Source of the DNA: Lachnospiraceae bacterium
GTDB taxonomy: Bacteria > Bacillota > Clostridia > Lachnospirales > Lachnospiraceae
Length of the DNA stretch: 64,000 nt
NCBI GenBank assembly: GCA_024696615.1
Contig: JAILGS010000090.1
Location: forward strand, 26,069-90,068
Direction: 5' to 3'
Part shown: piece after piece, positions 27,131 through 62,894 of the stretch
Layout of the letters: the number at the start of each line of letters is the position of its first letter
Position numbering within the stretch: position 1 is the first letter of the stretch
Made by a program: the position numbers and the translations under genes
Notes under the pieces: model-generated
What the model saw: only the letters and a program-made list of their open reading frames with translations
What the model was told of the DNA's origin: nothing
The model's database searches: none

Positions 27131-27152
27131 AAATGTAAGGAGCGAGAATAAC

Positions 27153-27902
27153 ATGTTAAAAACCGTCATCCTTGCCGCCGGCAAGGGCACCCGTATGAAA
27201 TCCGACCTACCTAAGGTCGTACATAAAGCCGCAGGCATTCCCATGGTGGAACATGTATTAAATGCCTGTGTGGAAGCAGGCGTTAAAGAAGCTTGCGTAG
27301 TCATCGGCTATGGTTCCGATGTGGTAAAAGAATGCGTTAGCCATACGAAGGCTGTAACCGAGGGAAGAGTATCGGTAACATTTGCAATGCAGGAAGAACA
27401 GTTAGGAACGGGCCATGCGGTAAAATGCGCCCGGGACTTTATTGGAAAAGAAGGAAGCACCCTGGTACTGTGTGGGGATACGCCACTGATCACGGGAAAG
27501 ACCCTGAAGAAATTAGCAGAGCACCATCAGGCCGCTGGTAATGATACCACAGTACTTTCTGCCATCTTAGAAGATCCAACAGGATATGGCCGAATCATTC
27601 GTGATGGCGAGGGCCGATTTGTAAAAAATGTGGAGCATAAGGATGCGACGGAAGAAGAGCGTGCATCCAGGGAAATTAATTCCGGCATGTATATCTTCCA
27701 GAGTGATAAGCTCTATGATGCCTTGGATCAGTTAAATAATAACAACGCCCAGGGAGAGTATTATCTTCCGGATACTCTGACCATTATTAAAAGCCAGGGG
27801 GGAGCAGTGGATGCCATGGTGATTGATGATGTGACGGAGATTGAGGGTGTGAATAGCCCAGAGCAGCTTGCGCATGCAGAAGAAGTGCTAAAGTTGCGCT
27901 AA
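27153..27902 (+). CDS. GlmU-like sugar-1-phosphate uridylyltransferase domain only (no LbH acetyltransferase domain)
   Basis: 249 aa from ATG 27153, with AAGGAG RBS at 27138-27143. N-terminal ILAAGKGTRMKSDLPKV and overall GlmU N-domain likeness. The stop at 27900-27902 is followed 61 nt later by pth. Confidence 0.8.
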   Translation: MLKTVILAAGKGTRMKSDLPKVVHKAAGIPMVEHVLNACVEAGVKEACVVIGYGSDVVKECVSHTKAVTEGRVSVTFAMQEEQLGTGHAVKCARDFIGKEGSTLVLCGDTPLITGKTLKKLAEHHQAAGNDTTVLSAILEDPTGYGRIIRDGEGRFVKNVEHKDATEEERASREINSGMYIFQSDKLYDALDQLNNNNAQGEYYLPDTLTIIKSQGGAVDAMVIDDVTEIEGVNSPEQLAHAEEVLKLR

Positions 27903-27963
27903 AACCCTTATTGTATCAATTAAGAGCAAATAGAAAGTTAATGAAAGAAGATTAATAGAGTAT

Positions 27964-28521
27964 ATGAAGATTATCGTTGGGCTTGGAAATCCGGAGAAAA
28001 AGTATGAAGGGACCAGGCATAATGTGGGATTTGCAACCTTGGACCGTCTGGCAGAGACCTATCAGATTGCAGTGGATACGAAAAAATTCCAGGGATTGAT
28101 TGGAAAAGGTGTGATTGGCGGGGAGAAAGTCATTCTCGTAAAGCCCCTGACTTATATGAACTTATCCGGTAATTGTGTGCGGGAAGTGGCAGAATATTTC
28201 CGTGTGGAGGCAGAGGATATTCTGGTAATCTTCGATGATATTAGTCTGGTACCGGGACAGATCCGGATTCGTCCTAAGGGAAGTGCCGGTGGACATAATG
28301 GAATTAAAAGTATTATTGCCAATCTTGGCAGTCAGGAATTTCCACGGATCAAATGCGGCGTGGGAGAAAAGCCCAAGGGAAGCGACCTTGCGGATTGGGT
28401 GTTAGGTCATTTTAATAACGAGGATAAACGTCTTGTGGACGAGGCCATGGACCGGGCGGTGAAGGCAGTAGAATGCATTCTCACCGAGGGCGTGGATGCT
28501 GCGATGAATCGTTATAATTAG
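27964..28521 (+). CDS. pth: peptidyl-tRNA hydrolase
   Basis: 185 aa with IVGLGNPEKKYEGTRHNVGF and GSAGGHNGIKS. Confidence 0.95.
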   Translation: MKIIVGLGNPEKKYEGTRHNVGFATLDRLAETYQIAVDTKKFQGLIGKGVIGGEKVILVKPLTYMNLSGNCVREVAEYFRVEAEDILVIFDDISLVPGQIRIRPKGSAGGHNGIKSIIANLGSQEFPRIKCGVGEKPKGSDLADWVLGHFNNEDKRLVDEAMDRAVKAVECILTEGVDAAMNRYN

Positions 28522-28551
28522 AAGAATTGATGTAGTAGGATGAAGTAAAGC

Positions 28552-31500
28552 ATGAACGTATTATCAGAAATCGTCAAAGAATTAAATATATATGAGCCAC
28601 TGAAAGAAGCCTTACAAGAAGAAGGTGGCGTGAAGGTATCTGGTTGCGTGAATGCGGATAAGGCCCATTTCATCAGTAGTATGGTGGAAGGGGAAGGATG
28701 CGTCTGTATTGTCACCAAGGATGAGATCAGTGCAGAACATCTTTTAGAAGAATATAGTTATTATCATAAGAAGATTGTCTACTATCCAGCCAAGGATTTT
28801 ATCTTCTACAGTGCGGATGTGCATAGTAATCTCATTGTAGAAAAGCGAATCAGCGCTTTGCGCCAGATGATGGAGGATGCGGATGGACTGGTGGTGGTAA
28901 CCACCACGGATGCATTTGCAGACAGTCTGATTTCCAAGGAAGAATTTGCAAGGTTCATCCTTCCTGTGCAGGAAGGGGACACCATGGATCTGGATGAGTT
29001 TAAGAGTCGCATGGTGAATCTTGGATATGAGAGGGTCCCTCAGGTGGAGACCTCCGGCCAATTTGCGGTGCGTGGTGGAATTATCGATATCTTCCCATTC
29101 ACGGAAAGTAGTCCGGTGCGAATCGAATTATGGGATGATGAGGTGGACTCCATTCGGTATTTTGATGTGGACAGCCAGCGCTCTATTGAGCGTATTACCG
29201 AGATTACCATCTATCCTGCTACGGATATGCCATTATCCGAAGAGGGACTGCGTCTTGGTGTGGAAAAGATTCTTGCAGAGATGGAAGAATGTGAAAAAAC
29301 TTTCAAGAAGGCCAAGAATCTGGAAGCGGCGGGAAGAATCCGCAAGGTGACCTTGGAGCAGGTGGAAACGATTCAGAATCGTTTTGACAGCCATGGAGCA
29401 GAAAAATTCATTCCCTATCTTTGTGAGAGACCAGTGACTTTACTGGATTACCTTCCTGCGAATACCTTAATGGTATTGGATGAGCCCCAGGAATTGGAAG
29501 TTGCCATGAAGGCGGTGGAAGAGGAATTCGTGGAAAGCATGGGACACCGCATGGAGCTTGGTTATGTGCTTCCCGGACAGGTGGCGAATTTCCATCCCCT
29601 GCGGGAAATTGCAGCGGATTTTGCCACCCATCGGTATGTGGCGATTTCCACCTTTGATGATCCGAAGGGATTTTTGCCCTATGAGAAGGAATTTACGCTG
29701 AATGTGAAAAGCATTGGCGCTTATCATAATAAATTCGAGATTTTAGTCAAGGATTTAGAAAAGTATTTAAAGAAGAAATACCGGGTAATCCTTGCCACCT
29801 CTTCCCGAACTCGTGCGGAGCGCTTAAGTCGGGATCTGCGGGATTATGATCTTCCGGCAGCCTATGTATCCGGAGAGTCGGGAGAATTCCCAGAGCTTCT
29901 TCCTGGACAAATGATGGTTATCCCGGCGGGGGTTGGCAGCGGATATGAATATCCGGAATTAAAATTTGTAGTGATTTCCGAGCGAGATATTTTCACCAGC
30001 CGGAAATTAAAGCGCCGCAAAAAGCATGGTTATGAAGGTAAGGTGATTGCCACCTTCAGCGAACTGGTACCTGGGGATTATGTGGTTCATGAAGAATATG
30101 GACTGGGAATCTACCGGGGCATTGAAAAGAAGAATGTGGGAGGCGTGGAAAAGGACTGGCTTGCCATCGAATATCGGGATGGCGGGGTTCTTTATGTTCT
30201 TGCCACCCAATTGGGACAGCTGCAAAAATATGCAGGACCGGAAGGTAAGGTTCCGAAGTTAAATAAAATCGGTGGAGCCGAGTGGGGCCATACCAAGGAA
30301 AAAGTAGAAAAAGCTGTGGAAACCGTGGCCAGGGATTTGGTGGAATTATATGCCACCCGTCAGATGGAAGAAGGATTCCAATTCAGTCCGGATAATGATT
30401 GGCAGATGGAATTTGAGGAAATGTTCCCTTATGAAGAGACCACGGATCAGATCACTGCCATTGAAGCTACGAAAAAGGATATGCAAAGCAGTAAGATTAT
30501 GGACCGACTCATCTGCGGTGATGTGGGCTTTGGTAAGACGGAAGTGGCGATTCGCGCAGCCTTTAAGGCGGTTCAGGATGGAAAGCAGGTGGTATACCTA
30601 TGTCCTACCACGATTCTTGCAGGACAGCACTTTGATACCTTCGCAAAGCGTATGAAGTCCTATCCGGTGAATGTGGCTTTGTTATCCCGTTTCCGTACGG
30701 GAAAGCAGATGAAAGAAACCCTTCGAGGATTGGAAGATGGTTCCGTGGATATTGTGATCGGAACCCATCGGGTGCTTTCGAAGGATGTGGTATTTAAAAA
30801 TCTGGGACTCTTGATCGTGGATGAGGAGCAGCGGTTTGGTGTGACCCATAAGGAGAAGATCAAGAAACTCCGTGAAAATGTGGATGTGCTGACTTTGTCA
30901 GCAACCCCAATTCCTCGTACCCTTCATATGAGTCTGGTGGGAATCCGTGACATGAGTGTACTGGAAGAGGCGCCACAGGATCGAAGACCGATTCAAACAT
31001 TTGTAACGGAACAGGATGATGAATTAGTACGGGAGGCGATCCGCCGAGAACTGGCCCGTGGGGGACAGGTGTACTATGTGTATAATCGTGTGCAGGATAT
31101 TGAAGATGTGGCAGAGCGCGTGCAGGCTTTGGTTCCGGATGCGAAGGTGGCTGTGGGACATGGACAGATGGATGAACATACCCTAGAGTCCGTGATGTAT
31201 GATTTTATCAATCATGAAGTGGATATTTTAGTGTCCACCACCATTATTGAGACAGGGTTAGATATCTCCAATGTGAATACCATGATCATTCAGGATGCGG
31301 ATAAATTCGGTCTTTCCCAGCTCTATCAGTTGCGTGGTCGAATCGGACGATCGAATCGTACCGCCTATTGCTTCTTATTATATCGAAGAAACAAGCTGAT
31401 TACGGAAGTGGCACAAAAGCGATTGGAGGCCATTAAGGAATTCTCGGATCTTGGCTCTGGCTTTAAGATTGCCATGAAGGATTTGGAAATCCGTGGCGCG

Positions 31501-32073
31501 GGTAATGTGCTGGGACAGAAGCAGCATGGACATATGGCTGCCGTGGGATATGATCTTTACTGCAAGATGTTAAATGAAGCAGTTCTTACCATGAAGGGGG
31601 AGAAGAAGGGCTTATCCGTGGAAACTCTGATTGATTTAGAGATGGATGCTTTAATTCCTTCCACCTATATTCGGAATGAGGTGCAGAAATTAGATATCTA
31701 CAAGCGTATTAATGCCATTGGAAGCCGGGAAGAACTTATGGATATGGAGGATGAGTTGGTGGACCGATTTGGAGATCTTCCTAAGGAAGCCAACAATCTG
31801 TTAAATATCGCATTATTAAAGTCCAAGGCTTCGGATGTATATATTACGGAAATCAAGGGTGGCATGAAGGGCGTTCGTATGAAGATGGATCCTCATGCAC
31901 CGATTGATACTAGTAAAATCCCACTGCTTGTGAAGGAATATCGGGGACAGTTAAAGGTTCATATGGAGGCAATTCCATACTTTACCTGGGTTCCGGAGAA
32001 GAAATATGTGGGAAATAAGGGAGAACTTCAGTTCTTAGAAGATCTCATGGATCTCGTGGATGGATTTCGTTAA
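28552..32073 (+). CDS. mfd: transcription-repair coupling factor
   Basis: 1173 aa with a UvrB-homology N-terminus, a CarD/RNAP-interaction region (GDYVVHEEYGLGIY) and superfamily-2 helicase motifs (GDVGFGKTEVA, DEEQRFG). Confidence 0.95.
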   Translation: MNVLSEIVKELNIYEPLKEALQEEGGVKVSGCVNADKAHFISSMVEGEGCVCIVTKDEISAEHLLEEYSYYHKKIVYYPAKDFIFYSADVHSNLIVEKRISALRQMMEDADGLVVVTTTDAFADSLISKEEFARFILPVQEGDTMDLDEFKSRMVNLGYERVPQVETSGQFAVRGGIIDIFPFTESSPVRIELWDDEVDSIRYFDVDSQRSIERITEITIYPATDMPLSEEGLRLGVEKILAEMEECEKTFKKAKNLEAAGRIRKVTLEQVETIQNRFDSHGAEKFIPYLCERPVTLLDYLPANTLMVLDEPQELEVAMKAVEEEFVESMGHRMELGYVLPGQVANFHPLREIAADFATHRYVAISTFDDPKGFLPYEKEFTLNVKSIGAYHNKFEILVKDLEKYLKKKYRVILATSSRTRAERLSRDLRDYDLPAAYVSGESGEFPELLPGQMMVIPAGVGSGYEYPELKFVVISERDIFTSRKLKRRKKHGYEGKVIATFSELVPGDYVVHEEYGLGIYRGIEKKNVGGVEKDWLAIEYRDGGVLYVLATQLGQLQKYAGPEGKVPKLNKIGGAEWGHTKEKVEKAVETVARDLVELYATRQMEEGFQFSPDNDWQMEFEEMFPYEETTDQITAIEATKKDMQSSKIMDRLICGDVGFGKTEVAIRAAFKAVQDGKQVVYLCPTTILAGQHFDTFAKRMKSYPVNVALLSRFRTGKQMKETLRGLEDGSVDIVIGTHRVLSKDVVFKNLGLLIVDEEQRFGVTHKEKIKKLRENVDVLTLSATPIPRTLHMSLVGIRDMSVLEEAPQDRRPIQTFVTEQDDELVREAIRRELARGGQVYYVYNRVQDIEDVAERVQALVPDAKVAVGHGQMDEHTLESVMYDFINHEVDILVSTTIIETGLDISNVNTMIIQDADKFGLSQLYQLRGRIGRSNRTAYCFLLYRRNKLITEVAQKRLEAIKEFSDLGSGFKIAMKDLEIRGAGNVLGQKQHGHMAAVGYDLYCKMLNEAVLTMKGEKKGLSVETLIDLEMDALIPSTYIRNEVQKLDIYKRINAIGSREELMDMEDELVDRFGDLPKEANNLLNIALLKSKASDVYITEIKGGMKGVRMKMDPHAPIDTSKIPLLVKEYRGQLKVHMEAIPYFTWVPEKKYVGNKGELQFLEDLMDLVDGFR

Positions 32074-32087
32074 GGGGGACGTTGCAG

Positions 32088-33587
32088 ATGACTCATAGTC
32101 TGAAGAAAAGTCTATTATTACGAACAATTATGCCCATTGTGCTCCTTGCTGTGGTGGCGGCAGTTTTTACCACCCATCGGGTTGCACACGAGCTAGAAAC
32201 CGTGGTAAGTCATGAACTTTCCAATACGGCTCATACGGTGGAGGATGCCCTGGACCTTCTTTATCCCGGGGAGTATGCCCAATATGGGGATAAGATTTTA
32301 AGTCTTGCCAAGGGCGAATATATTTTAAATGATCAATATGAATTAATTGATTCCATCAGTGAGGATTCCGGTTTAGAGATTAGTATCTTTTCTGGAAATA
32401 TTCGCTTCCTCACCACCCTTACGGATGAGGAAGGAAATCGTCTGGTGGGAACTTATGCTCACACCGTGGTGAATGCGGAAGTACTGTCCACAGGAACGTC
32501 CAAATTCTACAATTCCACCGTAGTAGGAAATAAGAAATATTATACCTATTATCTGGTGCTTCCCTATGAAGATGGAAGTTACGGGGTGATGATTGCAGTG
32601 GCTAAGGATGCCAGTGAAGTAACGAGAATGATTTATTCCGTCATCTGGCCAATTCTTGTAATCACCATTATTGTATCCGTACTTGGTGCTTTAAATTCCA
32701 TCGCCTATTCCAATCAAATGGTACGGGATATGGGATTATTGCAGAATTTTATGAAGGATGTTTCCCAGGGAAATCTAAAAGCAACCGTGGGATATGAATT
32801 AACGTCGAGAAAGGATGAATTATCCCAGATGGCGGATTTTGCCACCACCATGCAGAAGTCCTTACGGGAATTAATTGAACTGGATGCCCTAACGGGACTG
32901 GATAACCGACGAAGCGGCAATCGGATTATTGCAGAATGCCAGCGCCGGTTAGTGGAACACGAGGAGCCATATGTATTAGTGCTTGGAGATATTGATTTCT
33001 TTAAGAAGGTGAATGATACCTATGGACATGAAGCGGGGGATGAAATTCTTCGCATGGTTTCTGAAGTGTTAAAGAAGCGGATGAAGGGCCATGGAACAGC
33101 GGTGCGCTGGGGTGGCGAGGAATTTATTCTCATCTTCCCCAATGCAGAAAGTTATCAGGCCATGGAAGTAGTTTCTTCTATATTAGAAGAAATCCGTTCC
33201 AAGGTGACCTATGTGGAAAAGAAAGAAATTAGAATCACCATGTCCTTTGGAATTGCCAAGGCCTATGGAAGCAGGAGTATGGATGAGAATATTAAAGCGG
33301 CGGATGATCATCTATACTATGCCAAGGAGCATGGCCGTAATCAGATTGTGGATTATATTGAAGGAGAAGAACTTCCAATTCCGGAGGATATGCTTCCAGG
33401 GGGCGGTGGACGAATCAGTCCACAGGAGCACCATGCATTATATGGGGAGGGACCAAAGGAACCTGCAAAAGATGAGGTTATCATAAAAGAAAGTGGAACC
33501 CTGCCGGAAGAAAAGAAGGAATTATTAGAATATGTGGAAGAGCTTCGCAATGAGAAGCGTGAAAAGAACTCACAGGAAGGATCGTAA
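32088..33587 (+). CDS. membrane-bound diguanylate cyclase with Cache-like sensor domain
   Basis: ~499 aa with two hydrophobic spans flanking a periplasmic-type domain, a HAMP-like linker and a GGDEF domain with intact GGEEF. No RxxD I-site at the usual position. Glu/Lys-rich C-terminal tail. Confidence 0.85.
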   Translation: MTHSLKKSLLLRTIMPIVLLAVVAAVFTTHRVAHELETVVSHELSNTAHTVEDALDLLYPGEYAQYGDKILSLAKGEYILNDQYELIDSISEDSGLEISIFSGNIRFLTTLTDEEGNRLVGTYAHTVVNAEVLSTGTSKFYNSTVVGNKKYYTYYLVLPYEDGSYGVMIAVAKDASEVTRMIYSVIWPILVITIIVSVLGALNSIAYSNQMVRDMGLLQNFMKDVSQGNLKATVGYELTSRKDELSQMADFATTMQKSLRELIELDALTGLDNRRSGNRIIAECQRRLVEHEEPYVLVLGDIDFFKKVNDTYGHEAGDEILRMVSEVLKKRMKGHGTAVRWGGEEFILIFPNAESYQAMEVVSSILEEIRSKVTYVEKKEIRITMSFGIAKAYGSRSMDENIKAADDHLYYAKEHGRNQIVDYIEGEELPIPEDMLPGGGGRISPQEHHALYGEGPKEPAKDEVIIKESGTLPEEKKELLEYVEELRNEKREKNSQEGS

Positions 33588-34949: not shown

Positions 34950-35060
34950 AGTATTTGCTGTGACATTGATAGCGAAGAAGCGTGAGGTTGCTACATAATT
35001 TTATGTAGGTTTTCCGTGGAGCGAATGTCAGATAGCCCAGCTAATTGGGCTTAAGATGAT

Positions 35061-35174
35061 GACGACAGGTCACTGTACAGAATATTTCTGCGAAAGCAGA
35101 CGTGTGAGAGTCCTTGAAACTCCGAAAGGAAAGTCAGGAAACACACGGCAGCGTGTACAGTCACCGCTTGTCGT
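35061..35174 (+). promoter_or_regulatory. structured 5' leader RNA of the S10 operon (candidate r-protein autoregulatory element)
   Basis: A long-range helix 35062-35079 / 35154-35174 (17 bp with one bulge and one mismatch) encloses three elements: hairpin TCTGC-GAAA-GCAGA (35087-35100), helix CGTGTG/CACACG (35101-35106 / 35142-35147) and TCC-GAAA-GGA (35121-35130). Confidence 0.5.
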
Positions 35175-52701: not shown

Positions 52702-53567
52702 TTGTAGATAATATTAGTTATTCCTATGAAATCGAATCCGGCATTTCCAAAAATGCTATTTCCAACGTGAGTTTTACGGTGGAGCAGGGAGAATTCATAG
52801 GACTTATTGGCCATACGGGATCGGGAAAATCCACCCTGATTCAACATTTGAACGGATTAATCCGTGCTACCAGTGGATCCATCTATTATGAAGGCCAGGA
52901 TATCTATGACGAGAAGTTCGATATGAAAAAGCTGCGAAGTCATGTAGGACTGGTGTTCCAATATCCGGAACATCAGTTATTTGAGACGGATATTTTTAAG
53001 GATGTGTGTTTTGGTCCATTAAACCAGGGCCTTTCTCAAAAAGATGCGGAGTATCGGGCATTTGAAGCACTGCGTCAGGTACATTTGCCAGAGAACTTAT
53101 ACTATCAGTCCCCCTTTGACTTATCCGGAGGACAGAAGCGCCGTGTGGCCATTGCAGGAGTACTTGCCATGAAGCCGGATGTGCTGATTTTGGATGAGCC
53201 CACTGCAGGACTGGATCCAAAGGGCCGGGACGAGATCCTTGATCACATTGCCTCTTTGCGGGAAGAACTGGGAATTACCATTATTTTAGTTTCCCATAGT
53301 ATGGAAGATGTGGCAGAATACGTTTCACGAATTATGGTGATGAATCACGGGCATCTTGTCTATGATGATGAACCCAAGAAAGTCTTTGCCGCTTATCAGG
53401 AGTTAGAGACTATGGGGCTTGCAGCGCCACAGGTGACCTATCTTATGCATGAATTAAATGCCCAGGGAATTTCGGTTCCTTCGGATGTGACCACGGTGAA
53501 GGAAGCAACGAAGGTACTGGCTGATCTTTTAACTCAGTCGGAGAAATCCTCCACCTCTAAGCGTTAG
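52692..53567 (+). CDS. ecfA2: energy-coupling factor transporter ATPase
   Basis: 291 aa; GHTGSGKST, LSGGQKRR, LILDEP; overlaps ecfA1 by 10 nt. Confidence 0.93.
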   Translation: MSLIVDNISYSYEIESGISKNAISNVSFTVEQGEFIGLIGHTGSGKSTLIQHLNGLIRATSGSIYYEGQDIYDEKFDMKKLRSHVGLVFQYPEHQLFETDIFKDVCFGPLNQGLSQKDAEYRAFEALRQVHLPENLYYQSPFDLSGGQKRRVAIAGVLAMKPDVLILDEPTAGLDPKGRDEILDHIASLREELGITIILVSHSMEDVAEYVSRIMVMNHGHLVYDDEPKKVFAAYQELETMGLAAPQVTYLMHELNAQGISVPSDVTTVKEATKVLADLLTQSEKSSTSKR

Positions 53568-53586
53568 CGTAGGTGGGGGTTATGAC
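53527..53586 (+). repeat. 60-nt hairpin-containing direct repeat, copy 1 (overlaps the ecfA2 3' end)
   Basis: 57/60 identical to 54414-54473. Contains the G+C-rich stem CCTCCACCT...AGGTGGGGG. Confidence 0.9.
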
Positions 53587-53621: not shown

Positions 53622-54419
53622 ATGATTCGAGATATCACATTAGGACAATATTATCAAACCAACTCGGTATTACATCGATTAGATCCCCGGGTAAAATTAG
53701 TGGGAACCATGGTCTACATCGTGTCCCTGTTTATGGGAACCACCATTCCCGTCTATCTGGGAGCGGCAATCTTTTTAGGAATTCTTATTGCAATCTCTAA
53801 AGTACCGGTAAAATTCATGATGCGAGGCCTAAAATCCATCCTATATATTCTGATTTTTAGTGTGGTCTTCCATCTGTTTTTAACTCCCGGAACCCCAGTG
53901 ATTACCATAGGAAAATTTGCCATTACCCAGGAAGGAGCCCAGCTTGCAGCTTTTATGATTGTTCGATTGATGCTGTTAATCATCGGCTCATCCCTCCTCA
54001 CCCTCACCACCACGCCCAATAGTCTGACGGATGGCTTGGAGAAGGGCTTGCATGTGTTAACCTATGTGAAGGTGCCGGTGCATTCCATCGCCATGATGAT
54101 GTCCATCGCCCTTCGTTTTATTCCGATCTTAATTGAGGAAACGGACAAGATTATGAAAGCGCAGATGGCCCGTGGTGCGGATTTCGACCATGGAAATCTC
54201 ATCAAGCGTGCCAAAGCCATGGTACCACTGTTGGTGCCACTATTCATCTCCGCCTTCCGTCGAGCCAATGATTTAGCCATGGCCATGGAAGCAAGATGTT
54301 ATCACGGAGCTAAGGGAAGAACTCGTATGAAGCCCCTTCGTTATAAGAAGAAGGACTTTCTTGCATACCTGGTGCTCATTGCGTATTTCGCATGTATTCT
54401 CTTCCTTCGTAGATTTTAA
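53622..54419 (+). CDS. ecfT: energy-coupling factor transporter transmembrane subunit
   Basis: 265 aa polytopic protein with the conserved ARG-containing coupling helices (QMARGADF, ...AMEARCY). Confidence 0.93.
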   Translation: MIRDITLGQYYQTNSVLHRLDPRVKLVGTMVYIVSLFMGTTIPVYLGAAIFLGILIAISKVPVKFMMRGLKSILYILIFSVVFHLFLTPGTPVITIGKFAITQEGAQLAAFMIVRLMLLIIGSSLLTLTTTPNSLTDGLEKGLHVLTYVKVPVHSIAMMMSIALRFIPILIEETDKIMKAQMARGADFDHGNLIKRAKAMVPLLVPLFISAFRRANDLAMAMEARCYHGAKGRTRMKPLRYKKKDFLAYLVLIAYFACILFLRRF

Positions 54420-54473
54420 TTCAGTCGGAGAAATCCCCCACCTCTAAGCGTTAGCGTAGGTGGGGGGTATGAC
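54414..54473 (+). repeat. 60-nt hairpin-containing direct repeat, copy 2 (begins at the ecfT stop codon)
   Basis: 57/60 identical to 53527-53586; stem CCCCCACCT...AGGTGGGGGG. Confidence 0.9.
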
Positions 54474-54494: not shown

Positions 54495-55259
54495 ATGAAG
54501 CGTGTCAAACTCACAGTTGCATATGATGGAACCAACTACTGCGGCTGGCAGGTGCAGCCGGGAGTGGAGACGGTGGAAGGCGTATTAAATACCACCATCA
54601 GTAATTTCCTTCACCGGGAAGTGAAAGTAATTGGAGCCAGTCGTACGGATTCGGGAGTACACGCCTATGGCAATGTGGCAGTATTTGATGTGGAAGATCG
54701 GTATCGTGCGGAAATCTTTGCCAATGCATTGAATACTTTTTTGCCACCGGATATTGTGATCCAGTCCTCGGAAGAAGTGCCCCTGGATTGGCATCCAAGA
54801 CATTGCGACTGTCGAAAAACTTATGAATATCGGATTCTTAATCGAAGTCACCGGGATCCCTTACGAAAAGATCATACCATGTTCTATTATAAGAAGCTGG
54901 ATGTGGAGTCCATGAAAGAAGCGGCCGGGGCTTTGGTGGGAGAACATGATTTTAAAAGTTTTTGTTCCGTAAAGACCACGGTGGAAAGTACGATTCGCAC
55001 AATTTATGCCTGTGATGTAATCTGTGAAGAAAATCCCATGGATCCTTTGGGAGGAAGACTGATCACCATCCGCATTACGGGAAATGGATTTTTATATAAT
55101 ATGGTTCGGATTATTGCAGGAACCTTACTTCAGGTGGGAACGGGAAAGATTGCCAAAGAATCGATTCCATCCATGTTAGAAGCCAAGGACCGGGAAGCTT
55201 CAGGACCAACAGCCCCACCGGAGGGACTTACTTTAATGCAAATCATCTATGAAAGATAG
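54495..55259 (+). CDS. truA: tRNA pseudouridine(38-40) synthase
   Basis: 254 aa; YDGTNYCGWQVQ, GASRTDSGVHA (catalytic Asp). Confidence 0.95.
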   Translation: MKRVKLTVAYDGTNYCGWQVQPGVETVEGVLNTTISNFLHREVKVIGASRTDSGVHAYGNVAVFDVEDRYRAEIFANALNTFLPPDIVIQSSEEVPLDWHPRHCDCRKTYEYRILNRSHRDPLRKDHTMFYYKKLDVESMKEAAGALVGEHDFKSFCSVKTTVESTIRTIYACDVICEENPMDPLGGRLITIRITGNGFLYNMVRIIAGTLLQVGTGKIAKESIPSMLEAKDREASGPTAPPEGLTLMQIIYER

Positions 55260-55265
55260 GAATAT

Positions 55266-57092
55266 ATGAAAATCGTAGAACTTACTTCAAAGGAATGGCT
55301 GGACGGAAATCGATTAAATCAGGCAATCCGTGGACCGGAGGAGTACCTTGCCTATGCAAGAATTCCCCATGCTACGGGAAAAGAGATTCAGGAAGTGCTG
55401 GAAGCCAATCCTTTTTTAACAGAATATGATGCAGTAATCTTTGGGGCTTTCGAAGAGGAAACCATGGAAGGGGGAGAAATCACCCAGATGGATTTTCTTG
55501 CCATCCCACAGGTGGAACTGGTAGGTTTTTGTGTAGCCAAGTCCATTTTTCAGAAGGTCGGTCCCTTCCAGACAGGAATTGCGGGAGGGGGAACGGAATA
55601 TGAATTCCTGTGCCGTCTCTTAGGAGAGGGACGGGCTTTTTTGATTCCCTGTGCCTTGGACCAAAAGAAAGAACACCAAGAATCCATAGAATCATCCACG
55701 GAGCTACTAGAGGAAGGGACGAAACAGGTAGCAGCCCGCCAGGAAATTTCGAAGGAATATGCGGGATATCTATGGAAGATTTATTATGAAATCTATAAAG
55801 AATCCCCACATCTCTCCCTACTTTTAGAACAGTGGCTTCGAATCTGCCCACAGTTACTAGAACAGATGGAATATGTTACGGAACATGAGGATGAATTTCT
55901 TCGCCTGCGCAGACTTACGGCCCCATGGTTTATTATTATGGGGGATCAGACCTGCTATGGGGTATTACATACATTTGCAAAGAGGCTTGGGGAAGAACTG
56001 ATGGCCTATGGGGAATCCGTGGTTCTATCCGATAACTCCTTAGGAAATTACAGGGATTTGTCCCAATTGATGGAAAAGCCCTATAAAGCCATTGTGGGAT
56101 TTCAAAGTCCGGTACTGAGTAAGGACTTTTTTAAGCGGATGAATGTGGATCAATATCTGTTCTACTTTGATAATCCGCTGTTTTTCCATGATCTGTTTCA
56201 TGAATTGAGTCCTAAAATCCATATTTTACAACAGGATGGGGACTATGCCCGATATGGACGGGATTATTATGGAATTAAGGATAGTATCCATTTCTTCCCA
56301 GGGGGGGATGCATGGAAGGAACCGGGGAAAAGCGTTCCTAAGTCATCCCAGGGGGCTTTTGGGGAAGAAGAGGATCAGAAATTTTTAGAGCGTCCCCTCG
56401 ATTTAGTATTTATCGGTTCCTACCATCCGGTGAAAGAGCGGATGGCCTCGGACTTCGAGCAGGGATATTATGATTATATGATCGCGCACCCACAGGAAAC
56501 ATTTGAGGTGGGATGCGTGGGTTATACCAGTAAGGAGGGGGAGAAGATTTCCGCCTTCGACTTAACGCAATATTATCCGGTGTGCAAGGAAGTGGTGGCT
56601 TATTATCGCCATAAGGTGATGGAAACCCTGCTTGCAAGCGGCATCGAAGTGCATGTGTACGGGGATAGTTGGAAGGATTATCCGGACACGAAGGGGCGGA
56701 AGAATTTAGTGATTCATCCCGCCCTGTCCGTCGAAGAAAGCCTTCACACCCTGTCCCTATGCAAATGTTCCTTAAACGTGATGACTTGGCATAAGAATGG
56801 TATGACGGAGCGCATCGCCAATTCCATGGCCAATGGCGCCATCTGCATTACGGATGAAACCACGTATTTAAAGTTTCATTTTGATGAGGAGTGCATGCTG
56901 CAATTTTCCTTGGAGGATTTAGAAAGTCTTCCTGGACGGATTCGAAATCTTTTCGAGGATGCGCCTCGCATGGAAGCCATGTCTAAGAGGGCCAGGGAGA
57001 TTGCCATGAAGGAATATACCTGGGAGAAGCGCAGCCTCCTGCTGTTGGAGAAAGTGAATCAGGATGTGAAGTTTGGGGGAAGTGAAGGATGA
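55266..57092 (+). CDS. two-part protein: unknown ~380-aa N-terminal region plus CgeB-like GT-B C-terminal domain
   Basis: 608 aa. The C-terminal ~230 aa are paralogous to the C-terminus of 16328-17563. No family recognised for the N-terminal part. Confidence 0.45.
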   Translation: MKIVELTSKEWLDGNRLNQAIRGPEEYLAYARIPHATGKEIQEVLEANPFLTEYDAVIFGAFEEETMEGGEITQMDFLAIPQVELVGFCVAKSIFQKVGPFQTGIAGGGTEYEFLCRLLGEGRAFLIPCALDQKKEHQESIESSTELLEEGTKQVAARQEISKEYAGYLWKIYYEIYKESPHLSLLLEQWLRICPQLLEQMEYVTEHEDEFLRLRRLTAPWFIIMGDQTCYGVLHTFAKRLGEELMAYGESVVLSDNSLGNYRDLSQLMEKPYKAIVGFQSPVLSKDFFKRMNVDQYLFYFDNPLFFHDLFHELSPKIHILQQDGDYARYGRDYYGIKDSIHFFPGGDAWKEPGKSVPKSSQGAFGEEEDQKFLERPLDLVFIGSYHPVKERMASDFEQGYYDYMIAHPQETFEVGCVGYTSKEGEKISAFDLTQYYPVCKEVVAYYRHKVMETLLASGIEVHVYGDSWKDYPDTKGRKNLVIHPALSVEESLHTLSLCKCSLNVMTWHKNGMTERIANSMANGAICITDETTYLKFHFDEECMLQFSLEDLESLPGRIRNLFEDAPRMEAMSKRAREIAMKEYTWEKRSLLLLEKVNQDVKFGGSEG

Positions 57093-58228
57093 AATTATTA
57101 TTCTGGCAGTGGAACGCATTTATGCAAAAAGGCATGGAGCGTGGACTAAAGAATCTTTCGATTCCATATGAGGTATTGTCCTATATTCCGAAGGACTGGG
57201 AGTCGGATCCTTTCATGGAAGCCGCCTTACAAAGCGCCTGGGAGAAGGATAACTTTGATGGGATTCTTTCTGTGAATTTTTGTCCGATCGTGTCAGATTT
57301 TTGTGAGGCCAAAAAAGTTCCTTATTATAGCTGGATTTATGACTCACCCCTGCATCTTCGAAATCTAAGGAGCCTAGGAAATTTCTGGAATCGAGTCTAT
57401 GATTTTGACCGAGGACAAGTGGAAGAATTTCATCGTATGGGCTATGGGGGAGTTAAGTATCTCCCACTGGCAGCGGATCCGGAAGTGTTTTTACCAAATT
57501 CGGATGGTAGGGATCCTTCCTATGTAACAGACATTGCCTTTCTTGGCAAATTATATCAGTCGGAATATGCCTATCTTAGTGCACCCCTGGATCAGTGGCA
57601 CCGTGGAAAATTAGAAGGCATGGTGAGTGCCCAACAGGTGGTGCCTAGCGGATTTATCCTGGATCATCTTTTGACGGATGCCTGGATGGAGGAATGCAAT
57701 GCCTTCTATCAGGAAAAAAGTAATCAGACGGTGAAGGTATCCAAAGAAGAGATGCTTTATACCTGCGCCTGTGAAGCCACGGGAAGAAATCGTAAAATGG
57801 CACTGGCACTTTTATCCAACCGTTTTCGCGTGGATCTGTATTCCGCAGATGAGCCCCAGGGACTATCCGCAATAAATTCCCATGGATATGTGGATTATTA
57901 TGGCAAAATGCCCAAGGTCTTTGCCAATGCCAAGATTAATCTGAATATTTCCTTATGTAATATTCGAACGGGAATTCCTCTACGAGTGCTGGATATTATG
58001 GCCTGCGGTGGTTTTGTAATCACCAATATGCAGGAAGAAATCTGGGAGTATTTTACGCCTGGAGAAGATATCGTGGTATATGAAAATCTAGGGGATCTAG
58101 TGAATCTTTGCCAGTATTATCTGACCCACGAAGAGGAGCGGCGCCGTATTGCATATGCGGGGCAGCAGAAAATAAAGGAATGTTTTACATTTGAGCGGGG
58201 GCTACGAGAAATTCTTGGCCTAGTTTAG
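57089..58228 (+). CDS. CgeB-family (spore-maturation-protein-like) glycosyltransferase
   Basis: 379 aa with an ATGA overlap with the upstream gene. ...INLNISLCNIRTGIPLRVLDIMACGGFVITN... is shared with 58246-59412. Confidence 0.5.
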   Translation: MKLLFWQWNAFMQKGMERGLKNLSIPYEVLSYIPKDWESDPFMEAALQSAWEKDNFDGILSVNFCPIVSDFCEAKKVPYYSWIYDSPLHLRNLRSLGNFWNRVYDFDRGQVEEFHRMGYGGVKYLPLAADPEVFLPNSDGRDPSYVTDIAFLGKLYQSEYAYLSAPLDQWHRGKLEGMVSAQQVVPSGFILDHLLTDAWMEECNAFYQEKSNQTVKVSKEEMLYTCACEATGRNRKMALALLSNRFRVDLYSADEPQGLSAINSHGYVDYYGKMPKVFANAKINLNISLCNIRTGIPLRVLDIMACGGFVITNMQEEIWEYFTPGEDIVVYENLGDLVNLCQYYLTHEEERRRIAYAGQQKIKECFTFERGLREILGLV

Positions 58229-58245
58229 CGAAAGGGGACGGGAAG

Positions 58246-59412
58246 ATGAAGATTCTTGCCTGGGAACATAAGAATTTTGGAATTGAAGATATGAAGGAAG
58301 CCATGGCGAATCTGGGAAATGATTTTCGCGTTATTTCCACGGAGCTTTTGTTAGAACGAAGCAGTAAGGAATTTGATGCTCTTTTTGAAGAGGCGATGGC
58401 GGACCGCCCGGATGTGGTCTTTTCTTTTAATTACAGCGCGGTGATTTCCAATAACTGCAATCGCTACGGCATTCCTTATGTGGCTTGGGTGTACGATAGT
58501 CCGCTGTTAGTGCTCTATTCCTATACCATCACCAATCCCTGCAATTTCATCTTCCTTTTTGATAGTGCCCAGTATCTGGAGTTAAAAAACGGCGGCATCG
58601 ATACGGTATATTATATGCCACTGGCTGCCAATGTGGACCGACTGGCGCGAATGCGTGCCAAAATCGATGACAAGGTGCATGATGTGTGCGATAGCGCCAT
58701 CTCCTTTGTGGGCTCCATGTATAATGAGAAGGGAAATTTTTATGAGCGGCTCGAAGCCCTTCCCGACTATGTGAAGGGATATCTTGAGGGCATCATGGAA
58801 GCGCAGCTAGAAGTCTATGGTGCGAATTTTATCGAGGAATTATTAACTACCAATATTCTTGAGGAGATTCAGAGGGTGCTCCCTTATCGTCCGGCGCCGG
58901 GGGGCGTGGAACGTCCGGCAAGAGTCTATGCGGATTATTTCCTAGGACGCAAGATGGCCCAAATAGAGCGACAGCGAATCCTTCAGATGCTTTCTGAGAA
59001 GTATCCGGTGAAGCTTTTTACCCATCATGCCACCCCAAATCTACCGAAAGTAACGAATATGGGGGCCATCGATTATTATGATGTGATGCCATATGTGTTT
59101 ATGTGCAGTGATATTTCCCTTAATATTTCCCTGCGCAGCATTCGAAGCGGCATCCCTCTTCGCTGCATGGACATTATGGGAGCTGGAGGCTTCCTTTTAA
59201 CCAATTATCAGGCGGATTTTGGGAATCATTTTGTTGCCGGCGAAGATTATGTATATTACGATTCTGCGAATGATTGTTTAAGCAAATGTGATTATTATCT
59301 TTCCCATGCCTCAGAACGCAATCAGATGGCAGCCAATGCCTTAGGAAAGATGAAAGAATTTCATACCTATGAAGCGACTTGGAAGAGGATGATGGAATAT
59401 CTTCCATTGTAA
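58246..59412 (+). CDS. CgeB-family (spore-maturation-protein-like) glycosyltransferase
   Basis: 388 aa. ...ISLNISLRSIRSGIPLRCMDIMGAGGFLLTN... makes it a paralogue of 57089-58228. Confidence 0.5.
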   Translation: MKILAWEHKNFGIEDMKEAMANLGNDFRVISTELLLERSSKEFDALFEEAMADRPDVVFSFNYSAVISNNCNRYGIPYVAWVYDSPLLVLYSYTITNPCNFIFLFDSAQYLELKNGGIDTVYYMPLAANVDRLARMRAKIDDKVHDVCDSAISFVGSMYNEKGNFYERLEALPDYVKGYLEGIMEAQLEVYGANFIEELLTTNILEEIQRVLPYRPAPGGVERPARVYADYFLGRKMAQIERQRILQMLSEKYPVKLFTHHATPNLPKVTNMGAIDYYDVMPYVFMCSDISLNISLRSIRSGIPLRCMDIMGAGGFLLTNYQADFGNHFVAGEDYVYYDSANDCLSKCDYYLSHASERNQMAANALGKMKEFHTYEATWKRMMEYLPL

Positions 59413-59420
59413 TAAAGTGT

Positions 59421-59459
59421 AAAAAAATACGGGAACGATAGGAAATCGTTCCCGTTTTG
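59421..59459. terminator. bidirectional rho-independent terminator (CgeB-like island / aroD)
   Basis: A7 run, then the 11-bp stem ACGGGAACGAT / ATCGTTCCCGT, then TTTT. Sits between convergent genes. Confidence 0.85.
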
Positions 59460-59470: not shown

Positions 59471-60265
59471 TTACTCCTTCACCCACAGGCTTAATGCGTC
59501 GTGGAGTCGATCGGCTTCCACCTGACCTGGTGCGGAGGCACGACCTACGCATCCGAAGGTGAGACAACTACCAAAGGTCTGACCGGATAAGCGGCTAACT
59601 AATCCTAAATTTCCCATGGACATGGTGATGACTGGCTTTGGTAAGGTTTCATGTGCCATGGTGGTGGCAGCAAGAAGGGTTAATACATCCTCCGCAGCCT
59701 GAGGCATCACAGCAACTTTGCAGATATCACTACCCATTCGATCCATGTAGGAGAGTCGATCAAAGAGCTCCTGCTTGGATGGGGTCTTATAAAAATCATG
59801 ATTGGAAGCAATTACCTTCATAAAGTGCGCATGTAAGGTGGAAATTAAATCGGAAACGCTACTTTCGTCTGCGATGTAGATTTCCACATCCATGGCATCA
59901 ATCAGTGCTCCCGGTTTGTTGTTAACATGCTCGCATCGATCAATGACTTCAAGAAGGATCTTACGATATTCCCCATAATTACATTCCATCTCGCCTCCTT
60001 CTCGCTTGGTGCGAAGGGTGAAAATCAGCGGAATTCCCCGAAGAATTTCGCGAAGTCCTACGAGAACATCTTCTGTGGAATCTAAAGAACCCTGCTGGTA
60101 CTCGCTAAACCAGTCAGCACGCCATTCTACAATATCAACAGGATGTTTAACGATCTCCCTTGCCTGGGAGAAGATTTCATTAACAGTCTTTCCGGTAATT
60201 GGAAGACAAATCTTAGGGCGGCCCTCCCCTAATATCAGGCCACGAATCTGAACAATCCCTGCCAT
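59471..60265 (-). CDS. aroD: type I 3-dehydroquinate dehydratase
   Basis: 264 aa; PKICLPITG..., DIVEWRADWF, and the Schiff-base lysine context CKVAVMP. Confidence 0.9.
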   Translation of the reverse strand: MAGIVQIRGLILGEGRPKICLPITGKTVNEIFSQAREIVKHPVDIVEWRADWFSEYQQGSLDSTEDVLVGLREILRGIPLIFTLRTKREGGEMECNYGEYRKILLEVIDRCEHVNNKPGALIDAMDVEIYIADESSVSDLISTLHAHFMKVIASNHDFYKTPSKQELFDRLSYMDRMGSDICKVAVMPQAAEDVLTLLAATTMAHETLPKPVITMSMGNLGLVSRLSGQTFGSCLTFGCVGRASAPGQVEADRLHDALSLWVKE

Positions 60266-60561: not shown

Positions 60562-61833
60562 ATGATTAGTAACGTATATTCTTATTACGCGGCCCAGTAC
60601 GCGAATAAGTCTAATTCTCGTAACGACTCCCATAAACCGGGCGATTTAAAGAAAATCTATAATCGTATGGTGGACATTAACAGAACCTCACCGCTTTATA
60701 AGGTGGATCTGTCCACGGATATGCAAAAACTGGCCATTGATATTAAGGAGAATGCGATGGAATTAAAGGATTTCTCCGATATTCTAGAGGATGCAGCCAG
60801 TGATAAGACTGTGATTAAGCAGAAGGCGGAAAGTTCCAATGAGAAGGAAGTGGCAGCTCGATTTATTGCTACGGAACCACAGGAGATGGAGCTTTATACC
60901 GTGGAAGTGGAACAGCTTGCGACCCCACAGCGAAATTTAGGATATTATCTGCATCCGGATGCACCAATCCTAGAACCCGGGGAGTATTCCTTCGATGTGA
61001 AGATTTCGGATGTAACCTATGAATTACAGTTTGGTGTGGCTGCCGATGATACTGCGCGGGATATTCAGGAACGAATTCACCGCCTGATGAATAAGTCGGA
61101 TATTGGACTGACTTCCACCATCCTAAAGGATTCCATGGGGAATCAAGCACTTGCAATCACTTCCGAAGCCACGGGAACGTATGGAAAACCAACCCTCTTT
61201 GAAGTGATGGATAATACGGACGTATATCGTAATCGTGTGGTGGATAAGTTGGGAATCGGACAGATTGCAGCATATCCGGAGAATGCTATATACCTATTGG
61301 ATGGTGAAGAAAAGACTTCCCCTACCAATCAAGTAACCATCGGAAAATCCGTGGAATTAAAGTTTCGAGTGGCCTCGGGAGAACCGGTGAATATTAGTAT
61401 CGTGGAAGATACGGATGCCTTAATGAAAGATATTGAGAATTTCATGGAAGGATATAATCGGATGATTGATTTTGCCATGGCCAGTGCGGAGAAATTCTCC
61501 GGCGGCGGAAGACTTCTTTCAGAATTCTCAAGAATGACTGCCTCCTACAGTGGTGAACTTGAAGAGAATGGATTTACCATTGCGGAGGATGGAAAGATTA
61601 GTATTGATGAGAGTCATCGAGAACTCTTTAAAGACCGGGAACATGTGACGAAGGTGCTGGAGCAGTTGGAAGATTTCAAAAAATCCGTGGCAAGAAAGAC
61701 GGATCGGTTGATCAGTAATCCGGTGGAATATCTGGATAAGAAAGTGGTGGCCTATAAGGATCCATCCAAGAGCTTTAACAGTCCATATAATGCAAGTACC
61801 TATGCGGGTATTATGTTTGATAGTTCATATTAA
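60562..61833 (+). CDS. divergent flagellar filament cap (FliD / hook-associated protein 2)-like protein
   Basis: 423 aa with AAGGAGGTG RBS. The central and C-terminal regions follow the FliD pattern: YTVEVEQLATPQ; DIQERIHRLMNKSDIGLTSTIL...ALAITSEATG; NAIYLLDGEEKTSPTNQV...; DIENFMEGYNRMIDF; and GFTIAEDGKISIDESHRELF. The N-terminus is atypical. Confidence 0.5.
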   Translation: MISNVYSYYAAQYANKSNSRNDSHKPGDLKKIYNRMVDINRTSPLYKVDLSTDMQKLAIDIKENAMELKDFSDILEDAASDKTVIKQKAESSNEKEVAARFIATEPQEMELYTVEVEQLATPQRNLGYYLHPDAPILEPGEYSFDVKISDVTYELQFGVAADDTARDIQERIHRLMNKSDIGLTSTILKDSMGNQALAITSEATGTYGKPTLFEVMDNTDVYRNRVVDKLGIGQIAAYPENAIYLLDGEEKTSPTNQVTIGKSVELKFRVASGEPVNISIVEDTDALMKDIENFMEGYNRMIDFAMASAEKFSGGGRLLSEFSRMTASYSGELEENGFTIAEDGKISIDESHRELFKDREHVTKVLEQLEDFKKSVARKTDRLISNPVEYLDKKVVAYKDPSKSFNSPYNASTYAGIMFDSSY

Positions 61834-61896
61834 AAAGCGATGTATCCAATTCTTTGGAAGAGTAGTTCGAAAAGAATGGATTCATCGCTTTTTTGT
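61834..61896 (+). terminator. long-stem terminator after the fliD-like gene
   Basis: AAAGCGAT (61834-61841) pairs with ATCGCTTT (61884-61891), with an inner ATCCAATTCTTT / AAAGAATGGAT helix, followed by a T run. Confidence 0.6.
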
Positions 61897-61951
61897 GTCA
61901 TCATCGAATGCCAGGCATGGAATGATATATGGATATTCGTAAAGAAGTTAC

Positions 61952-62767
61952 TTATAAAAGGTCCTGTAACATTAGTTCAATGGCATGAGCACAACCGTCC
62001 GAATCGTTATCGAAAGTTACATAGTCCGCTACTTCTTTTACTGCATCGGAGGCATTGGCCATGGCAACGCCAAGTCCACTTTGGGCAATCATGGTAATAT
62101 CATTGCCACCGTCTCCGAAGGCTGCTAATTCTTCGGTGGTACAACCCACATAGGAGCAAAGCTTGGCTAAGGATTCGAATTTATCAATTCCCTTTGGTAC
62201 AATCTCCATGAAGAATGGGGCGGAAGTAAAGACATTTAATCCCGGTACCATGGAACGAAGGACGGGCATCTCTGCCTCCACTGTTTCAGGATCTTCTGTA
62301 ATGAGAAGTTTTGGAATTGGATAGGTGATAAAGGTTCCTAAATTATAAATCTCTTTCATTGGAAGATGATTAATCCTTGCTTCAATTTCCACATAGCGAT
62401 TCACCTGATTGGTATAGAGGGTATGACCATCTTCGGAATAGGTAAGAATCGAATATCCCTTTTCATTGGCATAATCACAGATTGGTTTTACCACATCCCT
62501 TGGAAGGGAAGTTTCTAAGATGGTTTTCTTCTGCTTGCAATCATAAATCAAGCCACCATTACAGGCCAGGATAAATCCTCCCAAACGCTCTAATTCTAAA
62601 TCCCTCGCAATGGGTTCGATGCCATGTACGGGACGACCGGAGGCTAAGGCAATGGTCACTCCCTGACGGCGTGCCTCGTAGAGGATCTCTTTGGTTTTTG
62701 GGGTGACGATCTTTTGTGAATTGGTTAAAGTTCCGTCCAGATCGAAAGCGAGAAGACGATATTTCAT
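61952..62767 (-). CDS. Cof-type HAD-IIB family phosphatase
   Basis: 271 aa from MKYRLLAFDLDGTL (motif I). Also SGRP (motif II) and GDGGNDITM (motif IV). The longer track start (62815) lacks an RBS. Confidence 0.85.
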   Translation of the reverse strand: MKYRLLAFDLDGTLTNSQKIVTPKTKEILYEARRQGVTIALASGRPVHGIEPIARDLELERLGGFILACNGGLIYDCKQKKTILETSLPRDVVKPICDYANEKGYSILTYSEDGHTLYTNQVNRYVEIEARINHLPMKEIYNLGTFITYPIPKLLITEDPETVEAEMPVLRSMVPGLNVFTSAPFFMEIVPKGIDKFESLAKLCSYVGCTTEELAAFGDGGNDITMIAQSGLGVAMANASDAVKEVADYVTFDNDSDGCAHAIELMLQDLL

Positions 62768-62894
62768 ATGCTTTCCTTTCCATGGGTAAAAAATATAGGT
62801 AGCATTTGCTACCAATCTAATGTATTATAGGAAGGTAGCAAGCAAAAAAGCAAATAGTTCTTTTTTTGTATTATATAATGTACAAAAAATCTTA

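Follow-up and report, generated by a model that had tools for sequence, protein, structure and literature searches.

We describe a change of gene order in a Lachnospiraceae bacterium in which three genes for predicted glycosyltransferases of the CgeB type have come to lie directly behind truA, the place at which all of the congeners compared carry the ribosomal protein genes rplM and rpsI. The stretch analysed, referred to here as the window, comprises 64,000 nucleotides of contig JAILGS010000090.1 (positions 26,069 to 90,068 of the forward strand; assembly GCA_024696615.1), and its source genome (G000) is a metagenome-assembled genome (MAG) of 2.0 Mb in 105 contigs that is 81% complete, with 0.38% contamination. 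We find that the lineage-specific change of gene order is real, that it is ordinary rearrangement and not a new system, and that the three genes belong to an already known kind of locus. We also consider it reasonably probable that the three enzymes are cytoplasmic builders of the flagellin glycan. Their names here, GT-A, GT-B and GT-C, are distinct from those of the GT-A and GT-B folds. The features at the junction are these:

54495-55259, plus strand: truA, tRNA pseudouridine 38-40 synthase (TIGR00071, 196.7 bits against a cut-off of 142.85, an equivalog-level match)
55260-55265, plus strand: rearrangement junction, a spacer of 6 nt from the truA stop to the GT-A ATG (direct sequence reading)
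55266-57092, plus strand: GT-A, 608 amino acids (PF13524, 46.4 bits; GT-B fold by AlphaFold2 model and Foldseek)
57089-58228, plus strand: GT-B, 379 amino acids (PF13524, 86.8 bits; PF12996, 51.3 bits)
58246-59412, plus strand: GT-C, 388 amino acids (PF12996, 74 bits; PF13524, 68.2 bits)

The coordinates of these open reading frames (ORFs) in an earlier, sequence-only reading of the window agree exactly with the ORF map, as do the ATGA at 57089-57092 through which the GT-B start overlaps the GT-A stop and the 17-nt gap (58229-58245) between GT-B and GT-C. An AGGA lies 4 nt ahead of the GT-A ATG, within the junction spacer.

The truA junction and the detached rplM-rpsI pair

In Firmicutes the string rpoA-rplQ-ecfA-ecfA'-ecfT-truA-rplM-rpsI is conserved. 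In the genome described here it is intact up to truA, the final gene of an S10-spc-alpha-ecfA-ecfA'-ecfT-truA block that is syntenic with that of the congeners (truA itself is 56-62% identical to their ecfT-adjoining truA), but rplM-rpsI, present in the complete string of all seven congeners, has become detached in this species. In 20 relatives, the seven congeners included, we compared what follows the truA copy linked to ecfT. The order ecfT-truA-rplM-rpsI is found in 7/7 congeners and the arrangement of the window in 0/7; rplM directly follows truA in 13 of the 20 relatives, or in 17 if those with one or two inserted genes are counted, and in G013, G017 and G040 no rplM occurs in the stretch seen after truA. 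The arrangement is thus not common to the relatives and is unique among the genomes sampled. The sequence-only reading had held that the three genes replace rplM-rpsI. The pair is indeed absent after truA, but as an autonomous unit with a promoter of its own it has moved elsewhere and was not replaced. A search across the genome located its only copy on another contig (C77:11338-12197), 22 nt after the stop of the UDP-glucose dehydrogenase gene ugd, where rplM retains a promoter-like site (TTGACT-17-TAGAAT) and the start of its leader. In the relatives a strongly conserved promoter (TTGACA-17-TATAAT) and a conserved leader hairpin precede rplM.

It is very unlikely that the adjacency of truA and GT-A is an artefact of MAG assembly or binning that conceals a truA followed, as elsewhere, by rplM-rpsI. 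The fragmentation and incompleteness of the MAG leave some room for this explanation, as does the fact that no independent assembly or near-identical protein was found in the collections searched, but the junction is situated 81 kb into a 95.6-kb contig, contains no N and is confined to the 6 nt that separate two full-length ORFs, which line up end to end with their orthologues, and both GC content and GC content at third codon positions (GC3) are uniform across it. Moreover, a second contig independently has rplM preceded by ugd and not by truA, the two junctions share no 10-mer or longer that might have led an assembler astray, the ecfT-linked truA, rplM and the transferase genes are all single-copy, and contamination is low. 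A 42-nt sequence spanning the junction had no match in metagenome contigs, and in a search of 5.8 billion proteins the closest homologue of GT-A had 41% identity.

No terminator-like hairpin was visible after truA in the truA-rplM spacers read, and in four relatives (G008, G009, G012 and G030) one or two unrelated genes have been inserted in this spacer, abutting or overlapping truA in G008 and G030. The spacer is thus a recurrent point of breakage and insertion in the family, for which the promoter of rplM and the lack of a visible terminator after truA offer a reason, and this makes the arrangement seen here less surprising. We note that single genes for secreted or lipoprotein-like proteins occupy the spacer in G008 (L019 1494-2696), G030 (L028 1511-2677) and G009 (L020 1794-4472); apparently it is a landing site of a general kind, where arriving genes gain transcription by read-through.

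The leader of rplM is of interest in its own right. In the truA-rplM spacers compared (L013:1449-1610, with equivalents in L012, L014-L018 and L021-L023) there is, downstream of the promoter, first a small hairpin (AAUGU...ACAUU) and then a strongly conserved loop around an invariant GCCCCGG, which reads AAAGCCCCGGAAG in most congeners. RNAalifold gave 10 pairs for this leader, 2 with compensatory changes, and the copy in the present genome (C77:11086-11337; L063) is expanded and diverged. Rfam detected no L13 leader before the relocated rplM or in the congeners, and the element has no match to any of its families, even at E values up to 10. It is a candidate for an undescribed L13 (rplM) leader of Lachnospiraceae.

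An island split by rearrangement

According to the sequence-only reading, the three genes were an accessory glycosylation module that had been grafted onto the conserved gene string. Comparison with the congeners does not bear this out. Orthologues of GT-A, GT-B and GT-C are present in every congener, always on a contig other than that of truA, with identities of 32-35%, 50-52% and 61-65%, respectively; GT-C is the most conserved of the three, and its 61-65% refers to the congener gene adjacent to aroD. When whole contigs were mapped, synteny switched cleanly at 55260-55265: positions 33593-55259 are colinear with the truA contigs of G002, G004, G006 and G007, while to the right, beginning at 55266, the gene order is that of the glycan-island contigs in G001, G002, G005 and G006. 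The order on this right flank is the transferase genes, aroD, a gene for a FliD-like protein, a HAD phosphatase gene, nusG, rplK, rplA, rplJ, rplL and rpoB, and the orthologues adjoin aroD, the FliD-like gene and nusG in those congeners with enough contig, as well as in Lachnospira. The genes nusG and FliD-like also occur together with several CgeB-like genes in Lachnospira spp., [Lactobacillus] rogosae and Eubacterium CAG:248/252, in which GT-C is 56-61% identical. Since the orthologues share the same right flank, it is the island that is old at this place and the S10...truA block that was brought to it. The further features concerned are these:

2714-18693, plus strand: the other half of the glycan island (by Pfam, a short-chain dehydrogenase/reductase (SDR), an IspD-like protein, three LicD, DegT, FdtA, GT8, GT4s, GT2-TPR and a CgeB-like protein of 411 amino acids)
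18717-55259, plus strand: 36.5 kb of housekeeping genes that separate the island halves, a placement confined to this genome (eda, glmM, pth, mfd, GGDEF, S10-spc-alpha, ecf and truA, by Pfam)
59429-59455, both strands: bidirectional intrinsic terminator with an 11-pair stem, common to the transferase block and the convergent aroD
59471-60265, minus strand: aroD, type I 3-dehydroquinase (PF01487, 231 bits), a conserved neighbour of the island
60562-61833, plus strand: FliD-like protein of 423 amino acids, a divergent cap-protein paralogue (FliD_C, 34.4 bits against a cut-off of 25.4; FliD_N, 20.4 bits)

In two congeners (G001:C61 and G006:C7) the genes for the DUF6492 protein, a 530-amino-acid protein, GT8, LicD and the CgeB-like protein of 411 amino acids, which belong to the operon at 2.7-18.7 kb, are contiguous with the orthologues of GT-A, GT-B and GT-C. 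We therefore consider the two sets of genes to be one island, split in this genome by 36.5 kb of housekeeping genes. Within that stretch an S10-Clostridia leader lies at 34967-35065, and positions 18717-33587 are not syntenic with the truA contigs of the congeners.

With respect to how this order arose, horizontal acquisition was considered and rejected, given that GC and GC3 are like those of the neighbouring genes and that orthologues occur in all congeners. A simple reciprocal exchange or single excision was rejected too. Several events are needed, because the ugd orthologues of the congeners are not near truA or the island, because the 18.7-33.6 kb stretch is not upstream of S10 in the congeners, and because another island paralogue stands isolated on C26; that GT-C is inverted relative to aroD when compared with G001 and G005, congeners in which aroD adjoins the GT-C orthologue, likewise speaks against a single event. 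In outline, rearrangements in this one species would have fragmented the island, and one of the breaks would have fallen between truA and the rplM promoter, where the spacer is short and has no terminator. The end of the S10-spc-alpha-ecf-truA block would have been joined directly to the first transferase gene, and rplM-rpsI, with its own promoter and leader, would have ended up behind the UDP-glucose dehydrogenase gene elsewhere.

The CgeB-type family is expanded and scattered in this genome. A second small transferase block (C95:708-3879; L061), consisting of a GT2 gene, a gene for a 389-amino-acid protein with DUF3880 and PF13524, and another GT2 gene, is located directly upstream of mbl-flgF-flgG, and further PF13524 genes are found on C26, C35, C37 and C92, giving 10 PF13524 matches in the genome as a whole.

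The three transferases and their likely role

The assignment of all three products to CgeB-like enzymes of GT-B fold, made in the sequence-only reading, held up: each passed a hidden Markov model test, exceeding the PF13524 gathering cut-off of 25 bits (46.4, 86.8 and 68.2 bits), and GT-A passed a fold test on its structural model. DUF3880 (PF12996; cut-off 25.2 bits) scores above its cut-off in GT-B and GT-C, which are paralogues with 32% identity. GT-A has no DUF3880 match and therefore belongs to a different subfamily; it groups with its nearest paralogue, the 411-amino-acid CgeB-like protein encoded at 16328-17563 (24% identity). No NCBIfam model matches GT-A, GT-B or GT-C, and a sequence search of the PDB returned nothing for the GT-A or GT-B proteins. 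The AlphaFold model of GT-A, built from 18 homologues (pLDDT 86.7), has both lobes of the GT-B fold in full, occupying residues ~220-600, of which Pfam matches only residues 452-591. Searches with Foldseek placed BshA, sucrose-phosphate synthase, PimA and PimB' at E values of about 1e-8, the range over BshA, PimA, sucrose-phosphate synthase and TreT being 1e-8 to 1e-7. The best structural matches are thus retaining GT-B enzymes of the GT4 type (BshA 3mbo/5d00, PimA 2gej, PimB' 3oka and sucrose-phosphate synthase 6kih), aligned over some 440-480 columns with a TM-score of up to 0.62 on the target, although these solved enzymes have only 8-14% sequence identity to GT-A and act on unrelated substrates. 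The GT-B and GT-C proteins presumably have the GT-B fold as well, judging from their family membership.

The N-terminal region of GT-A had been described as an unassigned stretch of about 380 amino acids. Because the GT-B fold in the model is complete from about residue 220, the additional region amounts to about 215 amino acids, with residues 1-130 forming a degenerate GT-A-like domain, residues 147-216 a helical linker and residues ~220-600 the CgeB-type GT-B glycosyltransferase. Residues 1-130 modelled alone yield an alpha/beta domain whose best matches are all transferases of the GT-A fold (CgT 5hea, WrtF, TarS, TarP and K4CP), the matches being weak (E 2.5e-4 to 1e-2). The domain retains a 'G.F....YE...R' motif and has no conserved DxD, and Pfam found nothing credible for it at E values up to 10. 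We read this N-terminus from the model as a putative degenerate GT2-like domain of uncertain activity. Transmembrane (TM) segments were predicted in none of GT-A, GT-B, GT-C or six other island-associated proteins tested, and the three proteins are predicted to be soluble, cytoplasmic GT-B glycosyltransferases of the CgeB type. A link to phages was considered and dropped, as PHROGs gave no match.

What might these enzymes act on? The contig that contains the window carries, upstream of it, mbl-flgF-flgG, two flgK-like genes, flgL, fliD and a gene for a flagellin of 270 amino acids, and these genes correspond to motility loci described for Lachnospiraceae (10.1101/2025.07.18.665615). In the congener G002 the island begins right after a flagellin gene whose product is 86% identical to that of the present genome, and continues with genes for Maf (PF01973), a PseB-like dehydratase and a CMP-sugar synthetase; further along it has orthologues of GT-A and GT-C as well as the FliD-like gene, and this is a canonical flagellin glycosylation island. 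A flagellin gene lies within 10 kb of orthologues in the congeners G002 and G003, and within 10 kb of the GT-C orthologues in a Lachnospiraceae MAG, Roseburia and Jutongia; it also adjoins CgeB-like genes in G003:C165 and G038:C124. In a table of 40 relatives, 14/14 carriers of a CgeB-like match are flagellin-positive and 0/10 flagellin-negative genomes have such a match; within the bacterial family, counted by genus, the corresponding table reads 7/3 versus 0/8 (Fisher one-sided p = 0.004, a value that overstates the case because the genera are related). Given the island context in congeners, the distribution restricted to flagellin-bearing genomes and the solubility of the proteins, the building of a flagellin glycan is the best reading. 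The sequence-only reading had likewise proposed a flagellar role and a link to the operon at 2.7-18.7 kb, and on congener synteny and flagellin co-occurrence this is the best-supported interpretation. We infer both the acceptor, flagellin, and the donor sugars. According to this scheme the three transferases would form the distal part of an old and highly variable flagellin-glycosylation island, which in the genus and in Lachnospira would lie between flagellar late genes and aroD, FliD-like and nusG-rplKAJL; they would use nucleotide sugars and, with the enzymes of the 2.7-18.7 kb operon, would add sugars to or extend an O-linked glycan on flagellin before its export.

Several observations weigh against a role in flagellin glycosylation or against the gene order on which our account is built. 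The nearest flagellin gene in this genome is about 60 kb upstream of the block, on the same contig, and phylogenetic relatedness means that the co-occurrence counts are not independent of one another. A search for Maf found none in the genome, which is 81% complete; the GT2-TPR protein encoded at 15120-16283 would have to act as the initiating transferase. The LicD and CDP-alditol genes of the sister operon would suit wall polymers as well. A sigma-28 motif derived from three flagellin promoters (TAAG-N14-17-CCGATA) is absent from the 64-kb window, and GT-A contains a terminator-like hairpin at 55613-55634 that, if functional, would cut read-through into the block, although it is no better than shuffles (z only -1.6). 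Finally, the sequence comes from an incomplete MAG in 105 pieces, and no exact-protein records from a second assembly of the species were found in the collections searched.

Some of these points would fit a different product. It is unlikely, in our estimation, that what the three transferases build or decorate is a different glycan of the cell surface, be it a polymer resembling wall teichoic acid, a capsule or an S-layer glycoprotein. In favour of this possibility, the sister operon encodes three LicD proteins and an IspD-like cytidylyltransferase with an SDR protein, along with amino-sugar enzymes of the kind usual for wall polymers, genes for an AGE-family epimerase and a protein with 14 TM segments lie nearby (20964-24319), proteins with PF13524 or DUF3880 are also annotated in the lipooligosaccharide outer-core loci of Acinetobacter, and the sigma-28 motif is missing from the window. 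Nevertheless, Pfam detected no domain of a priming transferase, flippase or polymerase at 2.7-18.7 kb or 55.3-59.4 kb, the island proteins tested lack TM segments, the congener orthologues are embedded between flagellin and Maf on one side and the FliD-like gene on the other, and CgeB-like matches are absent from all ten flagellin-negative relatives.

We regard it as highly improbable that the enzymes glycosylate a spore-surface protein as has been suggested for Bacillus CgeB. They do belong to the CgeB family (PF13524, with DUF3880), and B. subtilis CgeB has been proposed to O-glycosylate the crust protein CgeA at Thr112 (PMC13577073), which is equally a precedent for the modification of a protein in the flagellar reading. 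SpoIVA is encoded in 6/7 congeners, and the genus therefore probably sporulates. Against a role at the spore surface, three SpoIVA-positive but flagellin-negative relatives (G010, G014 and G025) have no CgeB-like match, whereas G012, which is flagellin-positive and SpoIVA-negative, has six; the matches thus track flagellin and not SpoIVA, so that the link to sporulation expected of spore-crust CgeB orthologues is not seen. In addition, the neighbouring genes are flagellar or housekeeping genes and not spore-coat genes (no search was made for a CgeA homologue), and SpoIVA was not found in this genome, which is only 81% complete. Proteins of the cgeAB type and those described here share PF13524, with DUF3880 in two of our three, and B. 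subtilis CgeB is likewise predicted to be a UDP-sugar-dependent, two-lobed transferase. It differs in being 317 amino acids long, as opposed to 379-608 here, and GT-A carries the extra degenerate GT-A-like domain and the context here is flagellar.

The flagellin glycan thus remains the product we favour, and the locus resembles known flagellin islands (C. difficile cd0240-0244, C. botulinum, C. acetobutylicum CA_C2186-2199, and the Maf/Pse/Leg genes of C. jejuni) in its variable make-up of soluble transferases and sugar-nucleotide enzymes and, in congeners, in its link to flagellin and flagellar late genes; in G002 the genes for Maf, the PseB-like enzyme and the CMP-sugar synthetase stand immediately behind that for flagellin. 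In C. acetobutylicum a gene with DUF3880 and a glycosyltransferase domain stands alongside Maf and NeuB-type genes in the cluster (PMC4000134). The locus differs from these islands in that it is broken up, is separated from flagellin and fused to the ecf-truA operon, lacks a sigma-28-type promoter motif and comes from a genome in which Maf was not found. In the literature searched, no CgeB-type enzyme has been experimentally shown to act on flagellin. A more far-reaching proposal would be that CgeB-type enzymes constitute an undescribed class of direct O-glycosyltransferases of flagellar proteins beside Maf, GT2-TPR (FgtA/GmaR) and FlmG, in which the GT-A-like domain of the 608-amino-acid form might recognise the acceptor, the enzymes would act as a unit with the FliD-like protein, and control would have been rewired from the flagellar regulon to the growth-linked ecf-truA unit. 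We consider this quite unlikely.

In the human gut, the flagellins of Lachnospiraceae are a major target of the immune system, and to our knowledge the sugar coats they carry are almost unstudied. The CgeB-type transferases that recur beside flagellin and FliD-like genes in Lachnospira, Roseburia and related genera form a concrete candidate family for such coats, and [Lactobacillus] rogosae CLA-AA-H255 offers a strain-designated genome with an orthologous cluster (locus L077). The gene order, for its part, is a small and clean example of how a terminator-less spacer before a promoter-bearing pair (truA / rplM) can act as a recurrent site of breakage and landing, with the result that incoming genes become part of a housekeeping operon. 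Neither of these points alters the present picture.

Transcription of the block and its neighbours

Because the spacer between truA and GT-A is only 6 nt, it has no room for a promoter, and a consensus scan found no promoter-like site on the plus strand between 53697 and 57301. Hairpins were assessed by comparing their folding energy with that of 200 shuffles. A strong hairpin between ecfT and truA (54433-54468; -23.5 kcal/mol) is without a U-tract, and the first convincing terminator after truA is at 59429. From these features of the sequence, and in agreement with the co-transcription proposed in the sequence-only reading, read-through from the ecf-truA unit appears the likely source of transcripts for the three transferases, which would probably have lost their own promoter as a result of the junction; transcription would then end at the hairpin shared with aroD. 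The sequence-only reading had placed a bidirectional terminator at 59421-59459, and we confirm one at 59429-59455, with folding energies of -17.4 kcal/mol on the plus strand and -18.3 on the minus strand (z -3.9 and -5.9). The hairpin beats all 200 shuffles on both strands, and its U-tract is better on the aroD side.

We note that near-identical 60-nt elements (53527-53586 and 54414-54473) bracket ecfT. The element contains a G+C-rich hairpin (-23.5 kcal/mol, z -3.4) with no U-tract and could serve in the processing or stability of RNA within the ecf-truA transcript.

The three flagellin genes of this genome (C95:21200-21430, C86:12920-13140 and C100:5450-5700) all carry a sigma-28-type TTAAG-N15-16-CCGATAT. 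Control of the transferase block by sigma-28 was rejected on the ground that the motif is absent from the window. Elsewhere, a TAAG-N15-CCGATAA is present in G001 (L032:4922-4947) in the divergent spacer between the FliD-like gene and aroD-GT-C, and the Lachnospira loci have a conserved sigma-28-like motif between the FliD-like gene and the transferase cluster, ahead of an ORF of 125 amino acids.

The sequence-only reading had also pointed to a FliD-like gene near the block, and its FliD_C match, though weak, is above threshold. The true FliD, of 719 amino acids, is encoded upstream on the same contig as the window. The FliD-like gene is a conserved anchor at the edge of the island, lying within 10 kb of the GT-C orthologues in 9/14 loci. 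Its product falls far under the FliD cut-offs of NCBIfam, its FliD_N and FliD_C matches being weak, and it has been kept at the edge of the CgeB-rich island across the genus and Lachnospira with 38-53% identity (L032, L033, L035, L038, L067-L071, L077 and L078). It may be a second cap-like protein tied to the glycosylation island. On the 3' side of this gene, an ORF of 85 amino acids (61840-62097) overlaps by 146 nt the 5' part of the convergent ORF for the Cof-type HAD phosphatase (61952-62815); either the short ORF is not real or the start of the phosphatase lies further in.

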